From an uncultured Anaerolineales bacterium (lineage in GTDB: Bacteria > Chloroflexota > Anaerolineae > UBA7937 > B3-Chlor): DNA of 64,000 nucleotides. The notes under the pieces were generated by a model. It was not told the origin of the DNA. It did not search any database and saw only the letters and a program-made list of their open reading frames with translations. Shown here piece after piece: positions 49,721-64,000 of the stretch. A program made the position numbers and the translations under genes. Each line of letters begins with the position of its first letter. Within the stretch, counting starts at the first letter, position 1. The stretch is from positions 77,568-141,567 of the forward strand of contig CAYSSR010000005.1 in the NCBI GenBank assembly GCA_964433755.1, in the 5' to 3' direction.

Positions 49721-52369
49721 ATGGAGAAATGGCATCTCGAATCGCCTGTCTTTTCCGCCCTCACGGATGAAGAGAGGCGCAGCATAGCCACCGAGATGCA
49801 GCCCCAGAGCTTTCAGGAAGGACAGAGCATTTTCCTGGAGGGCACACCCAGCGAGGCGATGTACGTCGTCGATCGTGGCTGGGTCCGCATACTGTCCGAG
49901 CAGGGCGGTAGGAAGGTCGTTCTCGCCAACCTGGGCCCAGGCAGTGTGCTGGGAGACGCGGACTTCTTCGTGGACGGACCCTATTCCTCCAGCGCCGAGG
50001 CCGCCTCTGAGGTCAAGCTGTGGGCCCTTAGCAAGGCCGACCTGAAACAACTGATTACCAGGGAGCCAGCGATCGGCGTCAAGCTGAGCCTGGCTCTTGG
50101 TGCCAAGGTGGTCCAGGTAACGGAGTACCTGGCCGAGAGTCGTCTGCCTGGTATCCCGTTCTTCACCCAGTTGTCGAGGGAGAGCCTCCTGGGGTTGGCG
50201 AACAAGCTAGAGATCAAGAGATGCCAGCGAGGCGATACTGTCTGCTGGCTGGGTGCACCAGGTGAGACGATGTACATCGTCGAGTCTGGCGAGGTGGAGG
50301 TGATCCTCGGACCGGAGAGCGACGAGGTCCCCAGGCCGCTTGCGGAGGGTGACTTGTTGGGGGAGATGGCCCTTCTGGCGAGAAAGCCGTACGCCGCGAC
50401 CTACAGGGTGTCCAGCGATACTGTGCTCTGGTCTCTCTCTCGTGCAGACTTCGACGATCTGGTGAGTGAGTTTCCCCCCATCCGCCAAGCGTTGTCCCGT
50501 GCGCTGAGCCAGCATCTGAGCCCAGAGGACCGGGCGATGGCGGAACAGCGGTTGGAGACTATCCCTCTCTTTGCCGACTTGCCTCCCGACGTGCTGTCGA
50601 AGGTTGGTCAGCGGTTGGTGCTTCAACACTATCCACAGGGTGAACTGGTCTTCTCCGCAGGGGATCCAGGGGACAGCCTGTACGTGATCGAGTCTGGCGA
50701 GGTGAAGCTGGCCTCTGAGACGACGACTGGTGACTCCACCGTGGCTTGGCTGGAGGCGAGCGAGTGGTTCGGTGAGATGGCCTTGCTGACCGGCAAGACG
50801 CGCTCGGTGAAGGCGCAGGCTATGACCGACACCAATCTCTGGGTGCTCTACAAGAACGACTACGACGACTTGATGGTGGAGCATCCAGCGATCAGCGTAG
50901 CTTTGGGTAAGGTGCTGAGCGAACGTCTGTCAGAGGGCTTCAGGGAGACTCGTCCCAGGGCCACGCCCACCAGGATGCGCGAGATGCCGTTCCTGGCGGA
51001 GCTGACCGATGTGGAGTTGGAGGACGTCAGCCGGCGTTTGCAGTCAGTAGAGAGGGTATCTGGAGAGGTCCTGTTCTCCATGGGAGATCCCGGGGACAGG
51101 ATGTACTTGATCGAGTCCGGTCGGGTGGAGGTACGTACCACATCCGCGGAGGGGCAGACGACTCTGGCCGAGCTCGGGGCCGGCGAACTGGTGGGTGAGA
51201 TGGCGCTGCTGAGCGGAAAACCGCGCACAGCGACGGCCCGCGCGGCCAGCGATCTCCAGTTGTGGGCCCTGGACAAGGACGATTTCGACGAGCTCACCCA
51301 CAAGTACCCTCGCTTCGTACTGGCTATCAGCCGGGCCCTCAGTGACCGGTTGGAGAGCACCTCGGTGGCGCAGGCGGCCCCTGCCAAGACCGAGAAGGTC
51401 GTGCGGCCCAAGCCCGTCGTCAAACCCAGGAAGAAGGAGCAGCCCAGACCGCGCCGGGAGCTGGGCTTGGTAAACAATGTGCGGGGTTCCGTGGTGTGGC
51501 TGATCAGCCGTAGCACGGGAGTCAAGCTGCGTCTGGCCGTCGTGGGGTTCCTGGCCTTGTGGCTCTGTGGGATCACCCTCCCGGCAACGGTGTTATCGTC
51601 GGTGCCATTGGAGAAGGATGACTTGCTGGCAGTGTTCGAGTCTCCAACTCCGACACAAGAGCTGATGATGGAGGAATCTCCACAGCGTGCGCTGGAGAGC
51701 CCCGTGCCCACCGATACTCCCACGCCCACGGAGGTTCCTGTGGATGCACCTCCAGAGCCGGGAGGCGCTGAAGCGGCGGTGATTCTGGCGGTTGTGCCTA
51801 CTGAAACGCCCACACCTGAGCCTCCTACTCCGACGCCGACCACGGTGCCGCCGACACCACGGCCAGCAGCGCCGACGGCGACACCTACTCCAGAGACTGC
51901 GGCCAACGTGATGGGAAGCGGGAGAGTGACCACTCCGACGGTGAAGGTCTACGACATGGACGGTATCCCGCGAGACCTGGACTGGGCCAATAGCAAGTAC
52001 GGAGGCTGGATAGACTACGGCCAGCCGAGTGGAGGAGCGTGTTTCCGCATCGTCGAACTGAGGGAGAGGTCAGGCCCATCCAACATTGACGTCTGGGTTC
52101 TGGACGAGAACGGGAACCCCTTGCCCAACATGATGCTGCGTTTCGACTGGCCCGGTGACGAGGTTCGCCAGGCCACCGATATCGAGGGCAAGGTCGGATT
52201 CGCTCTTGGCATGGGTTCCTACATCTACGATCCGCACGTCGGTGGTCCACATACCATACGTCTGGAGTGCCAGTACCCGTCAGACGTGGCCATGAACTGG
52301 GGACATCTGGCGGGAACGCCGCATGATCACCTGGATATCGTTTTCCAACTGGTACGCAGCGGACGCTAG
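49721..52369 (+). CDS. Protein with four cyclic-nucleotide-binding domains, one TM helix, Thr/Pro-rich linker and extracytoplasmic beta-rich domain
   Basis: Four repeats of the CAP_ED pattern ((I/L)..(E/Q)G......Y(V/I)(V/I)(E/D)(S/R)G.V.(V/I/L) ... GE(M)ALL ... R.A(T/S)) occupy aa 1-540. Then a basic stretch, TM helix LRLAVVGFLALWLCGITLPATVL, a PTPTP linker and a C-terminal domain of about 150 aa. Confidence 0.8.
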   Translation: MEKWHLESPVFSALTDEERRSIATEMQPQSFQEGQSIFLEGTPSEAMYVVDRGWVRILSEQGGRKVVLANLGPGSVLGDADFFVDGPYSSSAEAASEVKLWALSKADLKQLITREPAIGVKLSLALGAKVVQVTEYLAESRLPGIPFFTQLSRESLLGLANKLEIKRCQRGDTVCWLGAPGETMYIVESGEVEVILGPESDEVPRPLAEGDLLGEMALLARKPYAATYRVSSDTVLWSLSRADFDDLVSEFPPIRQALSRALSQHLSPEDRAMAEQRLETIPLFADLPPDVLSKVGQRLVLQHYPQGELVFSAGDPGDSLYVIESGEVKLASETTTGDSTVAWLEASEWFGEMALLTGKTRSVKAQAMTDTNLWVLYKNDYDDLMVEHPAISVALGKVLSERLSEGFRETRPRATPTRMREMPFLAELTDVELEDVSRRLQSVERVSGEVLFSMGDPGDRMYLIESGRVEVRTTSAEGQTTLAELGAGELVGEMALLSGKPRTATARAASDLQLWALDKDDFDELTHKYPRFVLAISRALSDRLESTSVAQAAPAKTEKVVRPKPVVKPRKKEQPRPRRELGLVNNVRGSVVWLISRSTGVKLRLAVVGFLALWLCGITLPATVLSSVPLEKDDLLAVFESPTPTQELMMEESPQRALESPVPTDTPTPTEVPVDAPPEPGGAEAAVILAVVPTETPTPEPPTPTPTTVPPTPRPAAPTATPTPETAANVMGSGRVTTPTVKVYDMDGIPRDLDWANSKYGGWIDYGQPSGGACFRIVELRERSGPSNIDVWVLDENGNPLPNMMLRFDWPGDEVRQATDIEGKVGFALGMGSYIYDPHVGGPHTIRLECQYPSDVAMNWGHLAGTPHDHLDIVFQLVRSGR

Positions 52370-52472: not shown

Positions 52473-53579
52473 ATGGCTGAGAAGGTGACCCTTAGTGTCA
52501 TCAAGGCTGACGTTGGCGGGTACGTAGGTCACTCTAGCATGCACCCCGCTCTGATAGAGGAGGCGGAGGAGAAGCTAGAGGGGGCCAAGCGCGACGGGAC
52601 GCTGATCGACTTCCGCGTCTCCCGTGTCGGCGACGACCTGGAGTTGATCATGACCCACCGCAAGGGCGTAGACGACTCGGGGATCCACAAGCTGGCTTGG
52701 AACACCCTGGAGGCGGCAACCAACGTGGCCAAGAGCCTGAAGCTGTACGGAGCAGGGCAGGACCTGCTCAGCGATGCCTTCTCGGGCAACGTCAAAGGAA
52801 TGGGACCAGGCGTGGCGGAGATGGAGTTCCTGGAGAGGGAGTCGGAGCCGGTCTTGATCTTCATGGCCGACAAGACCTCCGCCGGCGCTTGGAACATGCC
52901 CCTGGTCAAGATGTTCGCCGATCCTTTCACTACCATCGGCTTGGTGATCTCTCCGGCGATGCACGATGGGTTCAGGTTCGAGGTCCATGACGTGCTGGAG
53001 AGCAAGAGGATCTATTTCGACTGCCCCGATGAACTGTATGACATGCTGGTCTTCGTCGGAGCGCCAGCGCGCTTCATGATCAAGGCCGTGTATCACCAGG
53101 GCACGGGTGACGTTGGCGCCGTGTCGTCGACGCAGCGTTTGAGCTTGCTTGCCGGGCGGTACGTGGGTAAGGACGACCCGGTTCTCATAGTACGGTCTCA
53201 GGGAACCTTCCCGGCCATCGGCGAGATCCTGGATCCCTTCGCGTTCCCGCATCTGGTGGAAGGGTGGATGCGTGGCTCTCACCATGGGCCGTTGATGCCG
53301 GTTTCCGAACCAGAGAGCAACCCCAGTCGCTTCGATGGTCCCCCACGGGTGGTCTGCCTGGGTTTCCAGCTCTGCAACGGATCCCTCGTCGGTCCACGCG
53401 ACATGTTCGACGATCCCAGCTTCGACGAAGCACGCCGCATGGCTAATACCGCCGGCGAATACCTGCGGCGCCACGGTCCCTTCGAGCCGCACCGTCTACC
53501 TCTCGACGAGATGGAATACACCACCATGCCTCAGGTGGTGAAGAGGCTCGAAGGTCGTTTCGAGGCCCTGCCGAGCTAG
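52473..53579 (+). CDS. fbp: Fructose-1,6-bisphosphate aldolase/phosphatase (class V FBPase)
   Basis: The N-terminal block LSVIKADVGGYVGHSSMHP and the remainder are collinear with the archaeal-type bifunctional FBP aldolase/phosphatase as I recall it. Length about 368 aa. Confidence 0.88.
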   Translation: MAEKVTLSVIKADVGGYVGHSSMHPALIEEAEEKLEGAKRDGTLIDFRVSRVGDDLELIMTHRKGVDDSGIHKLAWNTLEAATNVAKSLKLYGAGQDLLSDAFSGNVKGMGPGVAEMEFLERESEPVLIFMADKTSAGAWNMPLVKMFADPFTTIGLVISPAMHDGFRFEVHDVLESKRIYFDCPDELYDMLVFVGAPARFMIKAVYHQGTGDVGAVSSTQRLSLLAGRYVGKDDPVLIVRSQGTFPAIGEILDPFAFPHLVEGWMRGSHHGPLMPVSEPESNPSRFDGPPRVVCLGFQLCNGSLVGPRDMFDDPSFDEARRMANTAGEYLRRHGPFEPHRLPLDEMEYTTMPQVVKRLEGRFEALPS

Positions 53580-54656: not shown

Positions 54657-57116
<2,460 letters not shown>

Positions 57117-57158: not shown

Positions 57159-58523
57159 ATGGCCAAGGGCCGCGCCAAGGCGATCTACGTCTGTCAGCAA
57201 TGCGGGGCCCAGTCGTTGAAGTGGGTGGGTCGCTGCCCAGACTGTGGCGAATGGAATAGCATGGTAGAGACGGTGGAGAGTAGGGATACTTCTCCACCGT
57301 CGTCTGTTAGGCCCCGAGGGAAACCCCAGCGTCTCGCCGACGTGCCGTCAGAGGGCTTCCAGAGGATCCCGGTACCCATGCCTGAGTTCAGCCGGGTGCT
57401 GGGCGGCGGCATCGTGCCCGGCTCCGTGGTGCTCATCGCAGGGGACCCGGGCATTGGGAAGTCCACGTTGCTGCTCCAGGTGGCAGCCTCGGTGAGCGGC
57501 AGCGTGGGGAAGGTCCTCTACGTCTCTGGTGAGGAGTCGGCTCCCCAGATCAAGAACCGCTCGCAACGGCTGGGCGTCTCGGCGGAGCAGGTGTACCTGC
57601 TGACGGAAACGGACGTGGATCTGATCGTAGATCACATCCACGAGCTCCAGCCGGAACTGGTAGTCGTCGATTCGATCCAGACTATCTCTGCCCCGGAATT
57701 GAGCTCGGCGGCGGGGAATATCAGCCAGGTGCGGGAGTCGGCCGCGCGTCTCACCGAGGTGGCCAAGGGGGAGGGCGTGCCGGTGTTCTTGGTGGGGCAC
57801 GTGACCAAGGAAGGCTCCATCGCGGGACCGAGGGTCCTAGAGCACATGGTGGATGCCGTTCTGTACCTGGAGGGCGAACGTTTTCACGCCTATCGCTTGC
57901 TGCGCAGCGTGAAGAACCGCTTTGGCTCGACGGACGAGATCGGCGTATTCGAGATGAGCGGCGAGGGGATGCTGGAGGTGAGCAACCCCTCAGAGGCCTT
58001 TCTGTCGGAACGGTCGGACGGGACGGGCTCGGCCATCGCTGTAACCCTCGAGGGCACCCGCCCTCTGCTGGTGGAGATCCAGGCGCTCACCAGCACCACC
58101 AGTTTCGGCCTACCCCGTCGCACGGCCAATGGCGTAGACTTCAACCGGTTGTTGCTGCTGGCGGCGGTGCTCAGCAAGCGTGTGGGGCTGCGGCTGCACG
58201 ACCAGGATATCTTCGTCAACGTGGTAGGTGGATTGAGGATCAACGAGCCGGCGGCGGACCTCAGCGTTGCGCTAGCCATCGCCTCCAGCTATCGCGACGT
58301 GCCGGTGGCTCAAGATCTCGCCGTGATGGGAGAGATAGGCTTGTCGGGCGAGCTGCGCTCCATCAGCCAGCCCATCAAGAGGCTCAACGAGGCGGCCAGG
58401 CTGGGCTTCACACGCTGCCTTCTGCCCCGGTCAGTCCGGCTGTCGAAGGACCGGCCGCCGGGGTTGGAGGTGGTACGAGCCGGCTCTCTCAGGGAGGCGC
58501 TGGACGTGGGCCTGGGCAAGTGA
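57159..58523 (+). CDS. radA: DNA repair protein RadA
   Basis: Zinc finger CQQCG ... CPDCGEWN, Walker A GDPGIGKST, a KNRFG motif, and a Lon-like C-terminal domain. Confidence 0.93.
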   Translation: MAKGRAKAIYVCQQCGAQSLKWVGRCPDCGEWNSMVETVESRDTSPPSSVRPRGKPQRLADVPSEGFQRIPVPMPEFSRVLGGGIVPGSVVLIAGDPGIGKSTLLLQVAASVSGSVGKVLYVSGEESAPQIKNRSQRLGVSAEQVYLLTETDVDLIVDHIHELQPELVVVDSIQTISAPELSSAAGNISQVRESAARLTEVAKGEGVPVFLVGHVTKEGSIAGPRVLEHMVDAVLYLEGERFHAYRLLRSVKNRFGSTDEIGVFEMSGEGMLEVSNPSEAFLSERSDGTGSAIAVTLEGTRPLLVEIQALTSTTSFGLPRRTANGVDFNRLLLLAAVLSKRVGLRLHDQDIFVNVVGGLRINEPAADLSVALAIASSYRDVPVAQDLAVMGEIGLSGELRSISQPIKRLNEAARLGFTRCLLPRSVRLSKDRPPGLEVVRAGSLREALDVGLGK

Positions 58524-59567
58524 TCACGACGCGTGTTTGAGGACCTTCAGAGCCCTCAGCGTGACCCACTTGCTGGGTTCTCTTTTCTCCTCGATGTCCA
58601 CCCAGGTCTTGCCGTTGTAGGTGTACTCCATCTTCCAGCGACCCTGCTGGTCCTGTTTGTTCGATACCAGATCCATGGCTGCTGCGAGCCTGGGATCGGA
58701 CCCGTATCCGAAGCTGGTGAGGACCTCCAGGTTCTGGAGGACGTCGGTGACGTAGAAGAGAGGGAAGCCGAACTGGAACCAGCTACGGGAGGGCTTGGTG
58801 GCGTAGCCCATGGGATAGTCGGCCACGGCAGGGTCCTTGCTGAGGAGGAACTCCAGGCCAGTGTCGATGGCTCTTTGGATCAAGGGCGTGCGCGCGTTCT
58901 GGGGCAGCTTGGAGAAACCCAGCATGACCTTGACCGCGCCCCAGGCGCAGGGCTTGCTGTCGTTGCCGCTACAGCAGAAGCCCGGGGCGCAGGTGGCGGA
59001 CTTGATGTAGTGCACCGGCGCGTCCTTCGCCTCCTGGGGAGCGATACCCTCGCCGGTGACAGCGCGAGCCATCCACTCCATGGCTCCATCCAGCCGTTCG
59101 TCTCCCAGCCAGCCCAGGTCCAGCAGGGCGGCGCTGAGGTTCCCCATCAGGCAGAGGATCGCCCCTCCCTGGGTGGCAGATGCGGAGAAGGACCCGTTCT
59201 TGTCGATGGCGTGCTCCAGCAGGTACTCGCAGGCTCTCTGTATGCGCTCATCGCTGCGGTCCGCACCTGACTGCGCCAGCATGGATAGCGACCAGACGAT
59301 GCTGCGGTACTTGGGGCGATAGCCTGGGCCAGGCTCTTCCCAGTAGCCCTCTGGCCTCTGCGCCTCTAGGATGGCCGGGACCGGACCGGTGGACATGACG
59401 GCCTGGCGGGCCTCAGCGAGCTCTGCTTGGTCGGGCTGGGTGCCCAGCAGTTCCTTCAGAGCAAAGTACCGGACGCCAGGGTTCGCGGCGTCCTCTTCGA
59501 GGAGCCAGGTCCTGGGGTCTTCGTTGAGCCTTGCGAGCCACTCTTCTGTCACGCTGCACCTCCACAC
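58524..59567 (-). CDS. Alpha-alpha toroid (prenyltransferase/terpene-cyclase-like repeat) protein, paralog 1
   Basis: QW-type motif KQDQQGRWKMEY near the C-terminus, with repeating helical-hairpin periodicity. About 70 percent identical by eye to the next gene. Confidence 0.6.
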   Translation of the reverse strand: MWRCSVTEEWLARLNEDPRTWLLEEDAANPGVRYFALKELLGTQPDQAELAEARQAVMSTGPVPAILEAQRPEGYWEEPGPGYRPKYRSIVWSLSMLAQSGADRSDERIQRACEYLLEHAIDKNGSFSASATQGGAILCLMGNLSAALLDLGWLGDERLDGAMEWMARAVTGEGIAPQEAKDAPVHYIKSATCAPGFCCSGNDSKPCAWGAVKVMLGFSKLPQNARTPLIQRAIDTGLEFLLSKDPAVADYPMGYATKPSRSWFQFGFPLFYVTDVLQNLEVLTSFGYGSDPRLAAAMDLVSNKQDQQGRWKMEYTYNGKTWVDIEEKREPSKWVTLRALKVLKHAS

Positions 59568-59685: not shown

Positions 59686-60750
59686 CTACGCGCACCGCTG
59701 GAGCACCCGCAGGGCGCGTAGGGTGACCCACTTGCTGGGTTTGCCCTTTTCCTCAATGTCGACCAGGGTCTTTCCGTTGTAGGAGTACACCATCTTCCAG
59801 CGGCCTCTCTCGTCCTGCTTGTCTAGCACCAGGTCCAGGGCTGCCGAGAGCCTCGGGTCGGACCCGTAGCCGAAGCTGGTCAGAACCTCCAGGTTGTGCA
59901 GGACGTCTGTGACCCAGAAGAGGGGGAAGCCGAACCTGAACCAGTTGCCGCTGGGCTTGGCGCCAGAACCCATGGGGTAGTCGGCCACAGCAGGGTCCTT
60001 GCTGAACAGGAACTCCAGCCCGGCCTCGATGGCTCTATCGATGAGAGGTGTGTGGACCTCCTCCGCCAGCTTGGCGAAGGCGTGCATCACGTTGACGGCG
60101 CCCCAGGCGCAGGGCTTCTTGGCGTTGTAGCCGCAGCAGAAGCGCGGGCCGCAGGTTCCGGACTTGAGGTAGCGCAACGGAGCGCTCTTCTCCTCGGTGG
60201 GGGCCACGCCCTCTCCTGTGACCATTCTGGCCACCCATTCCAGTGCTTTCTCCACGCGATCGTCGCCCGACCATCCCAGGTCCAGCAGGGCGGCCAGCAG
60301 GTGGCCGTTGAGACAAAGGATAGCCTGCGATGGGATGGCGGACATGGAGAAGGCGCCGTTCTTGTCGACGTTGTGCTCCAGGACGTACTCACATCCCCTG
60401 TGCACCCTCTCGTCGGCGCCGTCCGCGCCCAACTGGCCGAGCATGGTCACCGCCCACACGGAAGTCCGGTACTGGGGGAAGTAGCCGGGCCCTGGCTTCT
60501 CCCAGTAGCCCTCGGGGTGCTGGGCGTCCAGGATGATCGGGACCGGCCCGGTGGACATGACCGCGCGTCGGGCCTCCGTGACCTGGGGGGCGTCGCGCGG
60601 TCTGTGGAGAAGGTCCGTCAGGGCGAAGTAGCGCACTCCAGGGTTGGCCGGGTCGTTCTCCAGGAGCCAGGGCAGAGGGTTGTCGTTCAGCGAGTTGAGC
60701 CAATCCTGTGTCATAGGCTGTGCTCCTGTGCCAGTAGTCATGCCCTGCAT
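59686..60750 (-). CDS. Alpha-alpha toroid (prenyltransferase/terpene-cyclase-like repeat) protein, paralog 2
   Basis: Collinear with 58524-59567, including NPGVRYFAL, PEGYWE, CAWGAV and KQDERGRWKM. The start is uncertain (several Met in the first 13 aa). Confidence 0.6.
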   Translation of the reverse strand: MQGMTTGTGAQPMTQDWLNSLNDNPLPWLLENDPANPGVRYFALTDLLHRPRDAPQVTEARRAVMSTGPVPIILDAQHPEGYWEKPGPGYFPQYRTSVWAVTMLGQLGADGADERVHRGCEYVLEHNVDKNGAFSMSAIPSQAILCLNGHLLAALLDLGWSGDDRVEKALEWVARMVTGEGVAPTEEKSAPLRYLKSGTCGPRFCCGYNAKKPCAWGAVNVMHAFAKLAEEVHTPLIDRAIEAGLEFLFSKDPAVADYPMGSGAKPSGNWFRFGFPLFWVTDVLHNLEVLTSFGYGSDPRLSAALDLVLDKQDERGRWKMVYSYNGKTLVDIEEKGKPSKWVTLRALRVLQRCA

Positions 60751-60849
60751 AGGTCGCCAATGATTGTATCAGCATCGGTCTGGAACGTCGACCGGCTGTG
60801 GGGTGGTGCAGACGTGTGCAAGGCTTCTGCGCTATCACTCCCACCCAAG

Positions 60850-60975
60850 TCCTCCCCGCTCAAGGAGGAGGAATCTTGGTCGGCCGGGCCGGTCTCCCCT
60901 CCCTGGATGGGAGGGGTTTGGGGGAGGGGGGAGAGGTACCACCCCCACCTCATTCCTCCCCCATCAAGGGGGAGG
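60850..60975. repeat. Cluster of poly-G/poly-C hairpins and a G-tract run in the divergent intergenic region
   Basis: Three hairpins are present: tcctcc-8nt-ggagga, cccctccc-5nt-gggagggg, and cctccccc-5nt-gggggagg. The run GGGAGGGGTTTGGGGGAGGGGGG sits at 60909-60931. Two related units (CCTCCCC..CAAGG.GGAGG.AT) occur at about 60851 and 60955. Confidence 0.6.
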
Positions 60976-61020
60976 GATTTCCGCTGGTCGGTTCAGGGTC
61001 CACCGTCTCGGTGGGATGGG

Positions 61021-61049
61021 TTGTACAATGGGTGTAAGTGCAGTACAAT
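61021..61049 (+). promoter_or_regulatory. Sigma70-like promoter upstream of the CHAT-STAND gene
   Basis: TTGTAC, 17 nt spacer, TACAAT, about 80 nt upstream of the ATG at 61132. Confidence 0.5.
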
Positions 61050-61131
61050 AGTTGTGGCATCACCTTGGTCAGTCACACGCTGATGCGCAGCGGATCTGTG
61101 CTCCAAGGAGGCGCTTGCTCGGAGGAGGCAG

Positions 61132-64000
61132 ATGAACCTCTTGCACATCGTGGATCTGGGCGACGGCCAGATCGAGGTTGGCTGGCGGCGGGGCAATGAG
61201 ATCCCGCGCCATCACTCGCCGCTGCCTTTCGATGACCCTCTGAGCCCGGACGACCGGAGGGAGCTGCGCTGGTACCTCGAAGAGTACCTTCAGTTCCCCT
61301 ATGGCGCCGAGGAGTCTCACGCCCGCCGGGTCGAGGACAAGATGGCTGAGTGGGGAGAGGCCCTGTTCTCGCAAGTCTTCCCCAAGGTGGAGAAGGATCC
61401 TGACCCGCGGAGCTTCTACCAGGAGGCGGTGCGGGAAGGGCAGGAGCAGTGCGAGCTATGCGTCAGCTCAGAGGACACGGAGTTCCTGAACATCCCCTGG
61501 GAGCTGGTTCGAGATCCGACCCCGGGCCGAGGTTATCTCGCTCCTTCGCTGGCGGGACTGTACCGGCAGCGTAGCGGGCAGGCCGTTCAGGCCCCCTTGG
61601 AGATCCGGCAGGATGAGCCCTTTCGCATCTTGCTGATCATCGCCCGACCCATGGGGGAGAAGGACATCCCTCTGGGCACCGTGTCTCGCCCCATGCTGGA
61701 GGCGTTGCGCCCTCTGAGGCCCAGGGTCTCGCTCGAGGTGCTGCGGCCGCCCACCTTCCAGGCCCTGGTCAAGCGACTGGAGGACAACCCTGGGTTCTAC
61801 CATCTCGTGCACTTCGATGGGCACGGGGTATTCGCACCATCTGGCGGCGGCACCATCATGGCCTATGGGGCCAAGCCTGGCCGGGGACACCTCGTCTTCG
61901 AGAAGGACGATGGCAGGGAAGACATTGTGAATAGTGAGGATCTGGGACAAGCCCTGGCTACCTGCAAGGTGCCTCTCTTCGTGCTGAACGCCTGTCAGTC
62001 GGCCGAGGAGGGAATGGCCGACGCCTACTCTTCGGTGGCCTCGCAGTTGGTGGCCATCGGAGCCAAGGGTGTGGTGGCGATGTCCTACTCCGTGTATGCC
62101 GATGCAGCAGCTTCATTCATGGAGCGGTTCTACGAGAAGCTGGTGGGCGGGGCGTCGCTATCGGCAGCGGTCGCTGCCGGCCGCAAGCAGCTCTTCGCCG
62201 AGCCTGACCGTGTCTCGGTGGTGGGCAACCTGGAGCTTCGTGACTGGATGGTGCCCACCCTCTACCAGCAGGAGCAGGGGTACGTTCCCATCCCCCAGGT
62301 GGAGATGGTCACGGTAGCCGCGGAGGGGACGGAGGAAGCGGTCCAGCGACAGAAGGCGGAGGAGGTTTGTCCCGAGGGGCGCTTCGGATTCATCGGCAGG
62401 GATTACGACATGCTGCGCATAGAGCGGGCGCTGCGGGACGATCAAAGCCCTTGGGTGCTCCTCTCGGGGATGGGCGGCATCGGCAAGACGGAGCTGGCCT
62501 TTGGCTTCGCCCGATGGCACGCGGAGACCGGCGGCTGCCCGGGTGGCGTATTCGCAGCCTCTTTCAAGGAGAAGGCCGACTTCGGCCAGGTCATCGGGAG
62601 CATCGTGGGGTACGGGACTGATTTCTCGCGTCTCTCCGACGAGGAGCAGTGGAACTATCTCGTGGGATACCTGCGTGAGAAGCCTTGTCTGCTGGTGTGG
62701 GACAACTTCGAGACGGTGGCAGGATACCCTGAGGGCGCCGAGCCTCTGGCCACGGAGAAGGAGCGAAAGACCCTCTCGAGGTTTGTCAGGGCGCTCAGGG
62801 GCGGCAAGAGCCTGATGCTGATCACCACCCGGAAGCTCAAGGAAGACTCACTGGACATCGCCCCTGAACTGGTCGAACTGGGCGGTCTCACCCAACGCGA
62901 CGCGGGCCTGCTAGCCAGGAAGATTCTGAGCAGCGTGGGCCGCAAGCCCGAGGAGTTCCGCCAGGATCCGCAGTATTCGGAGCTGATCAAGCTACTCAGA
63001 GGGCACCCTCGCTCGCTGGAGGTGGTGCTGCCGCATCTGCGGAACAGATCCCCCCAGGAGCTGATAGACGCCATTCAGCACCGCGTGGACGACCTCGGTG
63101 AGAGCCTGGAGGATGCCTCTTTGAGCTACGCCTTTCACCAACTCTCGGAGAAGGCGCGGGAGCACCTGCCCGTTCTTGGGCTGTTCGTGTCGCGGGTCCA
63201 CACTAGCGGTCTTGCCGGATTGATGGCGTTGGGACTGCTGGCCGAGGACGCAAGAGAGCCGAGCGGGGAGACCGCGGACCAGATGTTGGACTCCGGAGCG
63301 TGGGCACAGCTCCTAGACGAAGCCGGAGCGTGTGGGCTCCTCCGATCCTCGGGACTTGGTGCGTACGAACTGCATCCTACGATCTCCCCGTTTCTGCGCC
63401 GGCAACTTGTGTCAGTCGTGGGTGAGGAAGGCAGGAAACGCCTCGATACCCTGTTCGTGCGCTTCTATGCCGCCGCTGCGAGAATGTGCGCAGAGAGGCT
63501 GGAAAGCGGCGACCGTGACGCACTCCTCAGGGCGCGCGATGAAGAGGCCAACTTCCTACGGGCGCTACGACTAGCTGAGATGAATGAGGGCTGGAGTGAT
63601 GTGGAGCAGTTGATGCGAATGCTTGGCCCGTACCACGACATGCTTGGACGCATCGATGAGTGGATACGGCTCCGCACACGCGTACTAGCGGCCCTGGGGT
63701 CGGAAGTGCCTGACAAGTCTGACCTCAGGCGAGCTTACCTGTGGATGTTCCTCATGGGGGATGTAGCCTTCTTTGCTCTGGAGAAGAACGATTTCTCCGC
63801 TGCCGAATCCGCCCAACGTCCCGTTCTGCAATTTGCCTCTTCATTGGATCACGTCGACGACCCGGAACTCCAAGAGAATGTTGCAGAAGCCTATCATCGT
63901 TGGGGAAACGTGCTCCACGCGCGTGGCGAACTCGACGAGGCGGCCGAGTGGTATCGAAAGGCGGCGGAGATCCAAGAACGCCTCGGTTTCGAGGGCAGCG
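61132..64000 (+). CDS. CHAT-domain protease fused to STAND (NB-ARC-like) P-loop NTPase and TPR repeats, 3' end beyond window (bacterial NLR-like protein)
   Basis: Not in the supplied ORF track. I translated it by hand: ATG 61132 after GGAGGAGG, with 956 sense codons and no stop to the window end. Caspase-like dyad HLVHFDGHG (His codon 61822) and LFVLNACQS (Cys codon 61993). Walker A GMGGIGKT (62467-62490). Walker B LLVWDNFE (Asp codon 62701). TPR-like AEAYHRWGNVLHARGELDEAAEWYRKAAEI at the end. Confidence 0.85.
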   Translation, partial: MNLLHIVDLGDGQIEVGWRRGNEIPRHHSPLPFDDPLSPDDRRELRWYLEEYLQFPYGAEESHARRVEDKMAEWGEALFSQVFPKVEKDPDPRSFYQEAVREGQEQCELCVSSEDTEFLNIPWELVRDPTPGRGYLAPSLAGLYRQRSGQAVQAPLEIRQDEPFRILLIIARPMGEKDIPLGTVSRPMLEALRPLRPRVSLEVLRPPTFQALVKRLEDNPGFYHLVHFDGHGVFAPSGGGTIMAYGAKPGRGHLVFEKDDGREDIVNSEDLGQALATCKVPLFVLNACQSAEEGMADAYSSVASQLVAIGAKGVVAMSYSVYADAAASFMERFYEKLVGGASLSAAVAAGRKQLFAEPDRVSVVGNLELRDWMVPTLYQQEQGYVPIPQVEMVTVAAEGTEEAVQRQKAEEVCPEGRFGFIGRDYDMLRIERALRDDQSPWVLLSGMGGIGKTELAFGFARWHAETGGCPGGVFAASFKEKADFGQVIGSIVGYGTDFSRLSDEEQWNYLVGYLREKPCLLVWDNFETVAGYPEGAEPLATEKERKTLSRFVRALRGGKSLMLITTRKLKEDSLDIAPELVELGGLTQRDAGLLARKILSSVGRKPEEFRQDPQYSELIKLLRGHPRSLEVVLPHLRNRSPQELIDAIQHRVDDLGESLEDASLSYAFHQLSEKAREHLPVLGLFVSRVHTSGLAGLMALGLLAEDAREPSGETADQMLDSGAWAQLLDEAGACGLLRSSGLGAYELHPTISPFLRRQLVSVVGEEGRKRLDTLFVRFYAAAARMCAERLESGDRDALLRARDEEANFLRALRLAEMNEGWSDVEQLMRMLGPYHDMLGRIDEWIRLRTRVLAALGSEVPDKSDLRRAYLWMFLMGDVAFFALEKNDFSAAESAQRPVLQFASSLDHVDDPELQENVAEAYHRWGNVLHARGELDEAAEWYRKAAEIQERLGFEGS

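Follow-up and report, generated by a model that had tools for sequence, protein, structure and literature searches.

The 64-kb window examined here, from contig CAYSSR010000005.1 of an uncultured Anaerolineales bacterium, ends within a plus-strand gene that begins at position 61132 and encodes a CHAT protease, a STAND NTPase and an array of tetratricopeptide repeats (TPRs) on one polypeptide chain. Sequence comparison, structural models and analogy with characterized proteins are best accounted for if this CHAT-STAND-TPR protein acts as a ligand-gated, nucleotide-dependent, oligomerizing protease switch of the NLR type. As to its biological role, we lean towards defense or abortive infection and cell death. 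The two halves of the protein, a protease-switch chassis and a C-terminal sensor, appear to have had different histories.

Architecture of the CHAT-STAND-TPR protein

Reading frame 1 is free of stops for 956 codons, from the ATG at 61132 to base 64000 on the plus strand, as the first-pass annotation had claimed. The frame is missing from the list of open reading frames (ORFs) for the reason guessed there: the ORF lister omits frames running off the window end. A protein in a public collection (P0001, encoded on an NCBI contig of 288 kb) is 1210 residues long and 100% identical to the window's product across all 956 residues. The coding sequence at 61132..64000 therefore represents codons 1-956 of 1210, with the ORF ending 254 codons past the window, and the full C-terminus was obtained through P0001. 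Because more than 2280 proteins are related to this one at E ≤ 0.001, it is a real gene rather than a chance ORF. The start codon is supported by an N-terminal sequence, MNxLxIxDLGxGxIQVSW, that is kept in homologs. The ribosome binding site previously noted 3 nt upstream of the ATG is there, namely the Shine-Dalgarno sequence GGAGGAGG at 61121..61128 (+), read directly from the DNA; GGAGAAGG occupies the equivalent place in a syntenic JGI contig, L002.

The first 390 residues are predicted to form a two-lobed CHAT protease. Pfam CHAT (PF12770) matches residues 104-358 with 84-85 bits, against a cut-off of 24. All four motifs quoted in the first-pass annotation were found (HFDGHG at residues 227-232, NACQS at 286-290, GMGGIGKT at 446-453 and LLVWDNFE at 520-527), and its claim of an intact His-Cys dyad extends to the family. 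In an alignment of 41 homologs (38-80% identity), from which the counts out of 41 given here are taken, His231 (codon 61822-61824) is present in 40 proteins and Cys288 (codon 61993-61995) in 39, while FDG (228-230) and Ala287 are invariant. Two proteins depart from the dyad: P0033 has Ser in place of Cys, and P0066 has Gln for His and Tyr for Cys.

We modeled residues 1-400 with AlphaFold2 (AF2) from 14 homologs (model mb608733d3e23; pLDDT 77.5, pTM 0.82, with pLDDT 85-95 across residues 1-150). The top Foldseek match of this model is Csx29 (8d9f; E 1e-8, 395 aligned columns, TMq 0.52), and SAVED-CHAT (8tl0; E 2e-8), the anti-sigma factor DdvA and separase are also matched, all with a probability of 1.00. 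True caspases and MALT1 rank lower. The fold alignments cover almost all of the model. The N-terminal ~140 residues, which had been set apart as a region of their own without a recognizable motif, are therefore better assigned to the two-lobed CHAT module as its non-catalytic lobe, as the alignments with Csx29, DdvA and separase indicate. This N-lobe, a β-hairpin plus helices, would comprise residues 1-160 (61132..61611, +), and the catalytic lobe residues 161-390 (61612..62301, +). A sequence profile of the CHAT part matches the PDB marginally (8tl0 at E 0.009), so it is Pfam and the fold search that support the relationship.

Residues ~419-880 are predicted, from sequence and model, to form a STAND module of the AP-ATPase/NB-ARC type, with the order nucleotide-binding domain (NBD), HD1, winged helix (WH) and HD2, rather than a NACHT module. 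The NBD (residues 419-585; 62386..62886, +), delimited by conservation, profile and fold, carries Walker A (GMGGIGKT, 62467-62490), Walker B (LLVWDNFE, 62689-62712) and a TTR sensor-1 motif at residues 565-567. HD1 (residues 586-655; 62887..63096, +) is helical in the AF2 model of the NTPase module (m8e3863a8d818; pLDDT 80) and contains a GHP (GxP) motif at residues 624-626 that aligns with PH0952. The WH (residues 656-750; 63097..63381, +), where the variable half of the protein starts, ends in an MHD-like LHP; in the model, His748 directly follows the winged-helix hairpin of residues 737-747, which is the position of the MHD histidine of NB-ARC proteins. HD2 (residues 751-880; 63382..63771, +) is a long-helix arm joining the WH to the TPRs, and its helices are modeled with pLDDT 84-95. 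Conservation of these motifs is nearly complete: K452, D524, E527 and the H625-P626 of GHP are found in 41/41 homologs, R567 of TTR in 40/41 and His748 in 39/41.

A profile of residues 405-880, built from 15 homologs and compared to the PDB, finds 6mfv (PH0952) at E 1.3e-8, Roq1 at 1.8e-4 and Apaf-1 at 5.5e-4, with the 6mfv alignment covering the P-loop through Walker B, TTR and GHP. Foldseek on the NTPase model returns Apaf-1 (1.2e-8), 6mfv, CED-4 and the wheat and tomato resistosomes with a probability of 1.00; the TM-scores of these matches are low (0.25-0.37), as expected with differing domain arrangement. We prefer the NB-ARC to the NACHT type because NB-ARC-type relatives lead both rankings. 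Single sequences are less telling. The window sequence scores 16-18 bits with Pfam NB-ARC (PF00931; cut-off 23.5), 15.6-17 bits with NACHT (cut-off 26.7) and 22-27 bits with AAA_16, in each case below the cut-off, and single-sequence phmmer of P0001 against the PDB returns TPR proteins only, so that kinship of the NTPase and CHAT parts needed profiles from sub-alignments. Individual Pfam scans of family members match NB-ARC in 14/15 (E ≤ 0.1, best 3.6e-8) and NACHT in 10/15. The earlier claim of an NB-ARC-like P-loop STAND NTPase thus holds by profile and by fold, to Apaf-1, CED-4 and NLRs, though not by Pfam cut-offs on the single sequence; the kinship with bNACHT that was suggested beside it does not, given an NB-ARC-type NTPase, a NACHT score below the cut-off and no bNACHT match in PADLOC.

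The remainder of the protein is a TPR array, which begins in the window (residues 881-956; 63772..64000, +) and extends to residue ~1175 of P0001. TPR_12, TPR_10 and TPR_MalT all match residues ~881-1175 above their cut-offs, bearing out the claim that the repeats continue off the window. We count five clear units (five to six in all) of the KLC type, 40-42 residues long and spaced 40/42/40/40, with 15-47% mutual identity. The ortholog encoded in L002 (P0003) has eight units of exactly 40 residues with ~74% mutual identity, and a Nostoc homolog (P0106) likewise has eight; over both arrays, mutual identity is 74-76% (up to 92%). Such regular repeats are a pattern known from fungal and bacterial NLRs, whereas the window's array is degenerate; the arrays of P0003 and P0106 suggest recent repeat expansion or homogenization in some alleles. 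After the TPRs, at residues 1160-1200 of P0001, comes a family-wide tail, MGExxFxxAWKxxFxGxEPPL, whose F1177 and W1181 are retained by at least 90% of the family. This tail could be an autoinhibitory or docking peptide.

Histories of the chassis and sensor halves

We compared the halves of the window gene to those of its syntenic ortholog P0003. Amino acid identity is 87% for the N-lobe, 88% for CHAT and 89% for NBD-HD1, versus 54% for WH-HD2 (residues 641-880) and 48% for the TPR region (residues 881-1175). For residues 1-660, nonsynonymous divergence (dN) is 0.068 and synonymous divergence (dS) is 0.72, and the protease and switch are under strong purifying selection, with ω ~0.09. For residues 661-956, dN is 0.43 and dS is ~1.9, a value near saturation and inflated by alignment error at ~50% identity. 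These two segments are bounded slightly differently from those used for identity. The neighboring genes (FBPase, ClpC, RadA and two unknowns), compared with their L002 counterparts, show 80-93% identity, dN of 0.04-0.13 and dS of 0.62-0.87.

The transition is abrupt. In 40-residue windows, the stretch from residue 660 to 680 takes identity from ~90% down to 30-40%, a step that coincides with the HD1/WH boundary and recurs against P0004 and P0005. Because dS in the WH-HD2-TPR half exceeds that of both the chassis and the neighboring genes, this half appears to have a history deeper than the genome's, and not merely faster protein change. Such a pattern would be expected from exchange by recombination or from maintained old alleles, and we take it to indicate that closely related genomes have exchanged the sensor half.

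Two limits apply to this interpretation: the sensor-half dS is near saturation, and the DNA-level comparison of the halves covers one close pair. Base composition is a weak sign in its favor: G+C at third codon positions (GC3) falls from 0.81 in the chassis to 0.67 in the sensor half (Fisher p = 7e-6), which could be taken as a sign of a foreign sensor. However, the ortholog has a similarly lower GC3 in its WH-HD2, and composition alone is no proof of foreign origin; we have downgraded this sign accordingly.

Genomic setting and relatives of the gene

Upstream in the window, all on the plus strand, lie genes for an 882-residue protein with four cyclic nucleotide monophosphate (cNMP)-binding domains (49721-52369; Pfam cNMP_binding, 292 bits, with no other domain recognized), a class V fructose bisphosphate (FBP) aldolase/phosphatase (FBPase; 52473-53579), a ClpC-like ATPase (54657-57116) and RadA (57159-58523). 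Two adjoining genes follow on the minus strand (58524-59567 and 59686-60750, 347 and 354 codons), transcribed divergently from the CHAT-STAND-TPR gene. Neither product has a match in Pfam, NCBIfam or PADLOC; one shows squalene-hopene-cyclase repeat matches, all below the Pfam threshold. Both are conserved in L002, with 85% and 80% identity, respectively, and the cNMP-binding protein is kept there too. A promoter-like site with an extended -10 is found for this divergent pair at 60791-60763.

Contig L002 has the same gene order as the window, followed by P0003 (L002 10001-14095), which is 76% identical to the window's protein. We used L002 as a syntenic proxy for the genes downstream of the window's gene. 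Those 3' of P0003, namely three small ORFs without a Pfam match, LexA and a CpXC-domain gene, are all on the opposite strand, and from this the CHAT-STAND-TPR gene appears to be monocistronic and to stand alone. A scan of genome contigs gave as its sole match a distant CHAT protein of Phormidium (L001, 29%). The window's FBPase falls into one cluster, at ≥90% identity, with a protein of an Anaerolineae metagenome-assembled genome, and the host is therefore probably a filamentous Chloroflexota bacterium.

The first-pass annotation credited the gene with its own promoter, and a scan of positions 60600-61300 supports this, with two sites found versus 0.2 expected by chance. One is a σ70-like promoter at 61022..61049 (+), TGTACA-16-TACAAT (or, in an alternative reading, TTGTAC-N17-TACAAT), the hexamers and spacing of which are kept in L002 amid diverged flanks. 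Two direct repeats lie nearby. One, GTACAATgGgTGT / GTACAATaGtTGT (20 nt apart, 61023-61055), overlaps both hexamers of the promoter (-35 and -10) and is a possible operator; the other, TGCTCcaAGGAGGC / TGCTCggAGGAGGC (17 nt apart, 61099-61129), duplicates the Shine-Dalgarno region.

The divergent intergenic region, 380 nt long, aligns blockwise with L002, with indels of 13, 9, 5 and 17 nt. Because these are not multiples of three, the intergenic ORFs are taken to be non-coding. Two plus-strand ORFs (60764-61051 and 60798-61037) had been considered as an EACC1-like small gene and were rejected, only the hairpin and promoter blocks being conserved. The hairpins form a C-rich/G-rich cluster at 60840-60980, between the two divergent promoters, and consist of TCCTCC-N8-GGAGGA, CCCCTCCC-N5-GGGAGGGG and ATTCCTCCCCC-N5-GGGGGAGGGAT, which jointly are able to fold into a single long, imperfect hairpin whose arms measure 34 nt. 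Of these blocks, the first two are kept in L002. The pattern CCTCCC-N3-10-GGGAGG is confined to this cluster, with two occurrences in the 64 kb against 0.18 expected. An Rfam scan of 60700-61200 gave no family at threshold, the microRNA-like hairpin matches reaching at most 27 bits versus cut-offs of 58-105. The cluster may bind a regulator, act as a structured element in RNA or DNA, or be a tract prone to forming G-quadruplexes.

The family is patchily distributed across bacteria and archaea, with members in Anaerolineae, Poribacteria, Zixibacteria, Desulfomonile, Nostoc, Theionarchaea and Hodarchaeota. Defense or toxin-antitoxin genes lie within 8 kb in four of the nine contexts that carry Pfam annotation: GmrSD with type I restriction-modification and a primase; TIR_2; AbiEi/AbiEii; and PIN/UPF0175/DUF2283. 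Two relatives, P0075 and P0082, are variants of the CHAT-NTPase chassis with a class III nucleotidyl-cyclase domain, which in P0075 is an apparent N-terminal extension of ~200 residues (judged by eye) and in P0082 a precomputed PF00211 match in a protein with no TPR matches. Their sequences appear to show modular swapping around the CHAT-NTPase core.

We searched for partner genes by clustering the ORFs within 3.5 kb of the gene at 86 loci (80 metagenomic loci plus L002-L007). In the window's clade (≥48% identity) no recurrent partner was found, and no gasdermin-type gene recurs among the neighbors. A membrane protein of ~330 residues encoded upstream at seven loci was rejected, as it is confined to closely related contigs and was judged local synteny. 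Two non-recurrent genes are noted as possible partners: a same-strand gene of L006 (8464-9951) for a 495-residue metallophosphoesterase, which stops 50 nt short of the homolog on its upstream side, and an upstream gene in L004 (8891-9616) for a 241-residue protein with a weak phage-tail-tube match (E 2.6e-4).

The sister clade (32-47% identity, cyanobacterial type) differs in having a recurrent neighbor. A protein of ~140 residues is encoded 0-2 kb downstream, on the same strand, at 19/32 eligible loci (L042-L078; e.g. L046 6622-7044 and L044 11266-11688). Its soluble, helical N-terminal part carries a CGDDG(F/L)R motif, its C-terminus forms a hydrophobic helical hairpin, and it has no match in Pfam, NCBIfam or PADLOC. 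By analogy with EACC1 or Pepco, it is a candidate protease-activated membrane effector. A tblastn search (E ≤ 1) found no homologs of it in the 64-kb window or at loci of the window's clade.

Known systems and possible roles

The first-pass annotation linked the architecture to antiphage and programmed-cell-death systems of the Avs/bNACHT type. With both the partial and the full protein, PADLOC-DB 2.0.0, a library without models for Avs7-21 (PMC13581612), gave no Avs/AVAST or bNACHT match. The NCBIfam model for EACC1-associated caspases (NF047832) does not match P0001; the distant P0106 scores 21 bits versus a cut-off of 140. The HetF equivalog (NF045509; cut-off 1200 bits) matches just the CHAT core, with 32-33 bits, and there is weak NCBIfam similarity to AfsR in the TPR part. 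Pfam scans show no SAVED domain in the protein, and the PADLOC SAVED_CHAT match is limited to the CHAT part. No CRISPR-Cas genes were recognized in the annotated neighborhoods of the window or L002. In the literature, the architecture class has been described computationally, and we found no experimentally characterized member of the family. Dyrka et al. (2020; bioRxiv 10.1101/2020.01.06.895854) reported N-terminal CHAT domains in 'all-in-one' NB-ARC/TPR NLR-like proteins of filamentous Actinobacteria, Cyanobacteria, Chloroflexi and aggregate-forming Archaea. CHAT ('Caspase HetF Associated with TPRs') NLRs have been noted in fungi (PMC10197012), and caspase-STAND-repeat fusions occur among conflict systems (PMC7159879). 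More broadly, prokaryotic STANDs fall into 589 clades, of which 198 are defense-associated (PMC13581612).

The protein described here has the same CHAT-NOD-TPR architecture as the NLRs of these surveys (bioRxiv 10.1101/2020.01.06.895854; PMC10197012), some of which have highly regular TPRs. Unlike fungal CHAT-NLRs, which are usually clustered with a gasdermin gene, it has no recurrent neighbor. KrAvs12 of Ktedonobacter racemifer, also a Chloroflexota host, likewise carries an N-terminal Cys protease of the caspase-like type, a STAND NTPase and a helical-repeat sensor on one chain, and it cleaves an upstream EACC1 pro-toxin when the phage tail connector is present (PMC12642450). Ligand-triggered oligomerization activates its fused protease, a logic that the window's protein would share. 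KrAvs12 differs in requiring the upstream pro-toxin, whereas the gene upstream in the window is divergent and the intergenic region non-coding, and in its catalytic Cys, C152 as opposed to C288; from this position, the KrAvs12 protease seems to be without the ~140-residue N-lobe. The same study reports a caspase-like protease without a linked effector that protects E. coli in a Cys-dependent manner by an unknown mechanism (PMC12642450).

Apaf-1 shares the NB-ARC-type NBD-HD1-WH-HD2 order and is the best fold match (E 1e-8), with Walker A/B, TTR, GxP and MHD-like motifs in common, and its output is a caspase-fold protease activated by induced proximity, as would be the case here. By contrast, the protease of the window's protein is fused rather than CARD-recruited, is of the CHAT/separase type rather than a caspase proper, and is coupled to TPRs rather than a WD40 propeller. 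PH0952 of Pyrococcus horikoshii, by profile the closest solved relative of the NTPase, has a similar NB-ARC plus TPR arrangement; unlike the window's protein, it lacks a protease effector. Csx29 (Craspase, type III-E) and SAVED-CHAT, the best structural matches of residues 1-400, are defense proteases activated allosterically or by assembly. Their activators are a crRNA-guided gRAMP complex and a cyclic-nucleotide-bound SAVED filament, respectively, whereas here the STAND NTPase would take this part. Finally, Borvo (BovA), a validated single-gene CHAT defense system, is similar in having one CHAT gene without a linked effector gene. The match to the BovA model is local, however (residues 197-337, profile positions 481-599 of 720), and we found no evidence of an NB-ARC module in BovA.

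Drawing on Apaf-1, plant NLRs, Avs proteins and SAVED-CHAT, we envisage the following mechanism. At rest, the protein would be monomeric, closed and bound to ADP, its WH-HD2-TPR arm packed against the NBD. Binding of a ligand to the variable WH-HD2-TPR half would release this lock; the likeliest ligand is a foreign protein, from a phage or another invader. Nucleotide exchange would follow, NBD-HD1 would drive oligomerization, and clustering would switch on the N-terminal CHAT domains. Since the clade has no linked gene for a dedicated substrate, the targets of the activated protease are probably proteins of the host or the invader, cut in trans. Growth arrest or death of the infected cell would result, in a host of the filamentous Anaerolineae type.

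We infer a role in immunity or cell death, as the first-pass annotation did, from the variable and apparently exchanged sensor and from the defense and toxin-antitoxin genes near four of nine homologs. The patchy distribution of the family and the precedents of KrAvs12, the partner-less protease protecting E. coli and Borvo also speak for it. Several observations weigh against such a role. The gene sits in stable housekeeping synteny (FBPase, ClpC and RadA) in two genomes with a dS of ~0.7, whereas defense islands usually show a presence/absence pattern. Of the nine annotated contexts, a small sample, five are purely housekeeping. Because only three distant relatives (28-31% identity) occur in 2.9 M viral contigs, the family appears not to be typically phage-borne. 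PADLOC gives only weak matches at the level of CHAT (SAVED_CHAT, 30 bits; BovA, 19-20 bits). In addition, STAND-TPR proteins include the non-immune regulators MalT and AfsR, and CHAT proteases include the developmental protein HetF.

The protein might instead be a housekeeping or developmental signaling protease, whose STAND-TPR part senses an endogenous metabolite, stress signal or cell-cycle protein and whose CHAT domain cleaves one specific regulator, so that filament development, cell division or stress responses are governed in Anaerolineae; the precedent would be HetF of filamentous cyanobacteria. The synteny and housekeeping contexts just described, the conserved promoter, the precedents of MalT and AfsR, the weak similarity to HetF (CHAT) and AfsR (TPR), and the failure of any PADLOC defense model to match would all fit. 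However, a sensor of a conserved endogenous ligand should be conserved, and no part of this protein is more divergent than the sensor half, which has a separate history; TPR number and regularity differ even between syntenic orthologs. The patchy spread over distant bacterial and archaeal phyla and a HetF score far below its cut-off argue in the same direction, and we consider a developmental role improbable.

Lower still do we rate a receptor for kin or allorecognition. Here, the variable TPR half would recognize polymorphic proteins of non-kin of the same species, and the protease would kill or isolate the cell and so keep filaments or consortia clonal, like the NB-ARC/TPR NLRs of fungal heterokaryon incompatibility. 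The excess dS of the sensor half over the background would fit old alleles kept by balancing selection, the regular 40-residue arrays of the ortholog and the Nostoc homologs resemble those of fungal NLRs, and the host is probably filamentous. Indeed, allorecognition has been raised for bacterial NLR-like systems (PMC10907252; bioRxiv 10.1101/2020.01.06.895854). But antiviral receptors are expected to show the same evolutionary signatures, the comparison covers just two alleles, the 86-locus clustering brought up no polymorphic partner gene linked to this one, and Anaerolineae cells are not known to exchange cytoplasm by any mechanism.

Least probable is that the protease activates one unlinked or downstream latent pro-toxin (a pore-former, nuclease or hydrolase encoded elsewhere), in the way that EACC1, Pepco, MBL and gasdermin serve other defense proteases: protease-activated effectors are the rule in PMC12642450, and the sister clade's downstream hairpin protein and the metallophosphoesterase gene beside one homolog are in keeping with it, but that hairpin protein has no counterpart in the window or its clade, no same-strand gene follows the ortholog in L002, and the intergenic ORFs upstream, with their frame-breaking indels, are non-coding.

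Returning to an NLR-type protease switch in defense, one can imagine a more far-reaching picture. In it, the gene would be the founding example of a large 'effector-independent' CHAT-NLR family, with a vertically inherited protease-NBD-HD1 chassis and a WH-HD2-TPR cassette swapped at the HD1/WH boundary, forming a recombining repertoire in filamentous Chloroflexota and many archaea, and the sister clade's ~140-residue membrane protein would be a new effector that forms pores once a protease has activated it. All of this together is a speculative proposition that we think unlikely to hold in full.

With an architecture class known from earlier surveys, and nothing that contradicts current models, the finding is useful rather than surprising. 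Follow-up is most worthwhile for the chassis/sensor mosaic and for the undescribed small membrane partner of the sister clade. Protease-NLR fusions embody the simplest form of apoptosome or inflammasome logic, with sensor, switch and caspase-fold executioner on one chain, and few from prokaryotes have been tested experimentally. The present family is very large, its >2280 detectable relatives spanning bacteria and archaea, including Asgard-related metagenome-assembled genomes. Having no linked substrate, the window's clade bears on the question, posed in PMC12642450, of how caspase-like defense proteases without a partner bring about killing or protection. The HD1/WH boundary, where the break is clean, may be a natural place for sensors to be swapped, which could help to map triggers or to engineer receptors.

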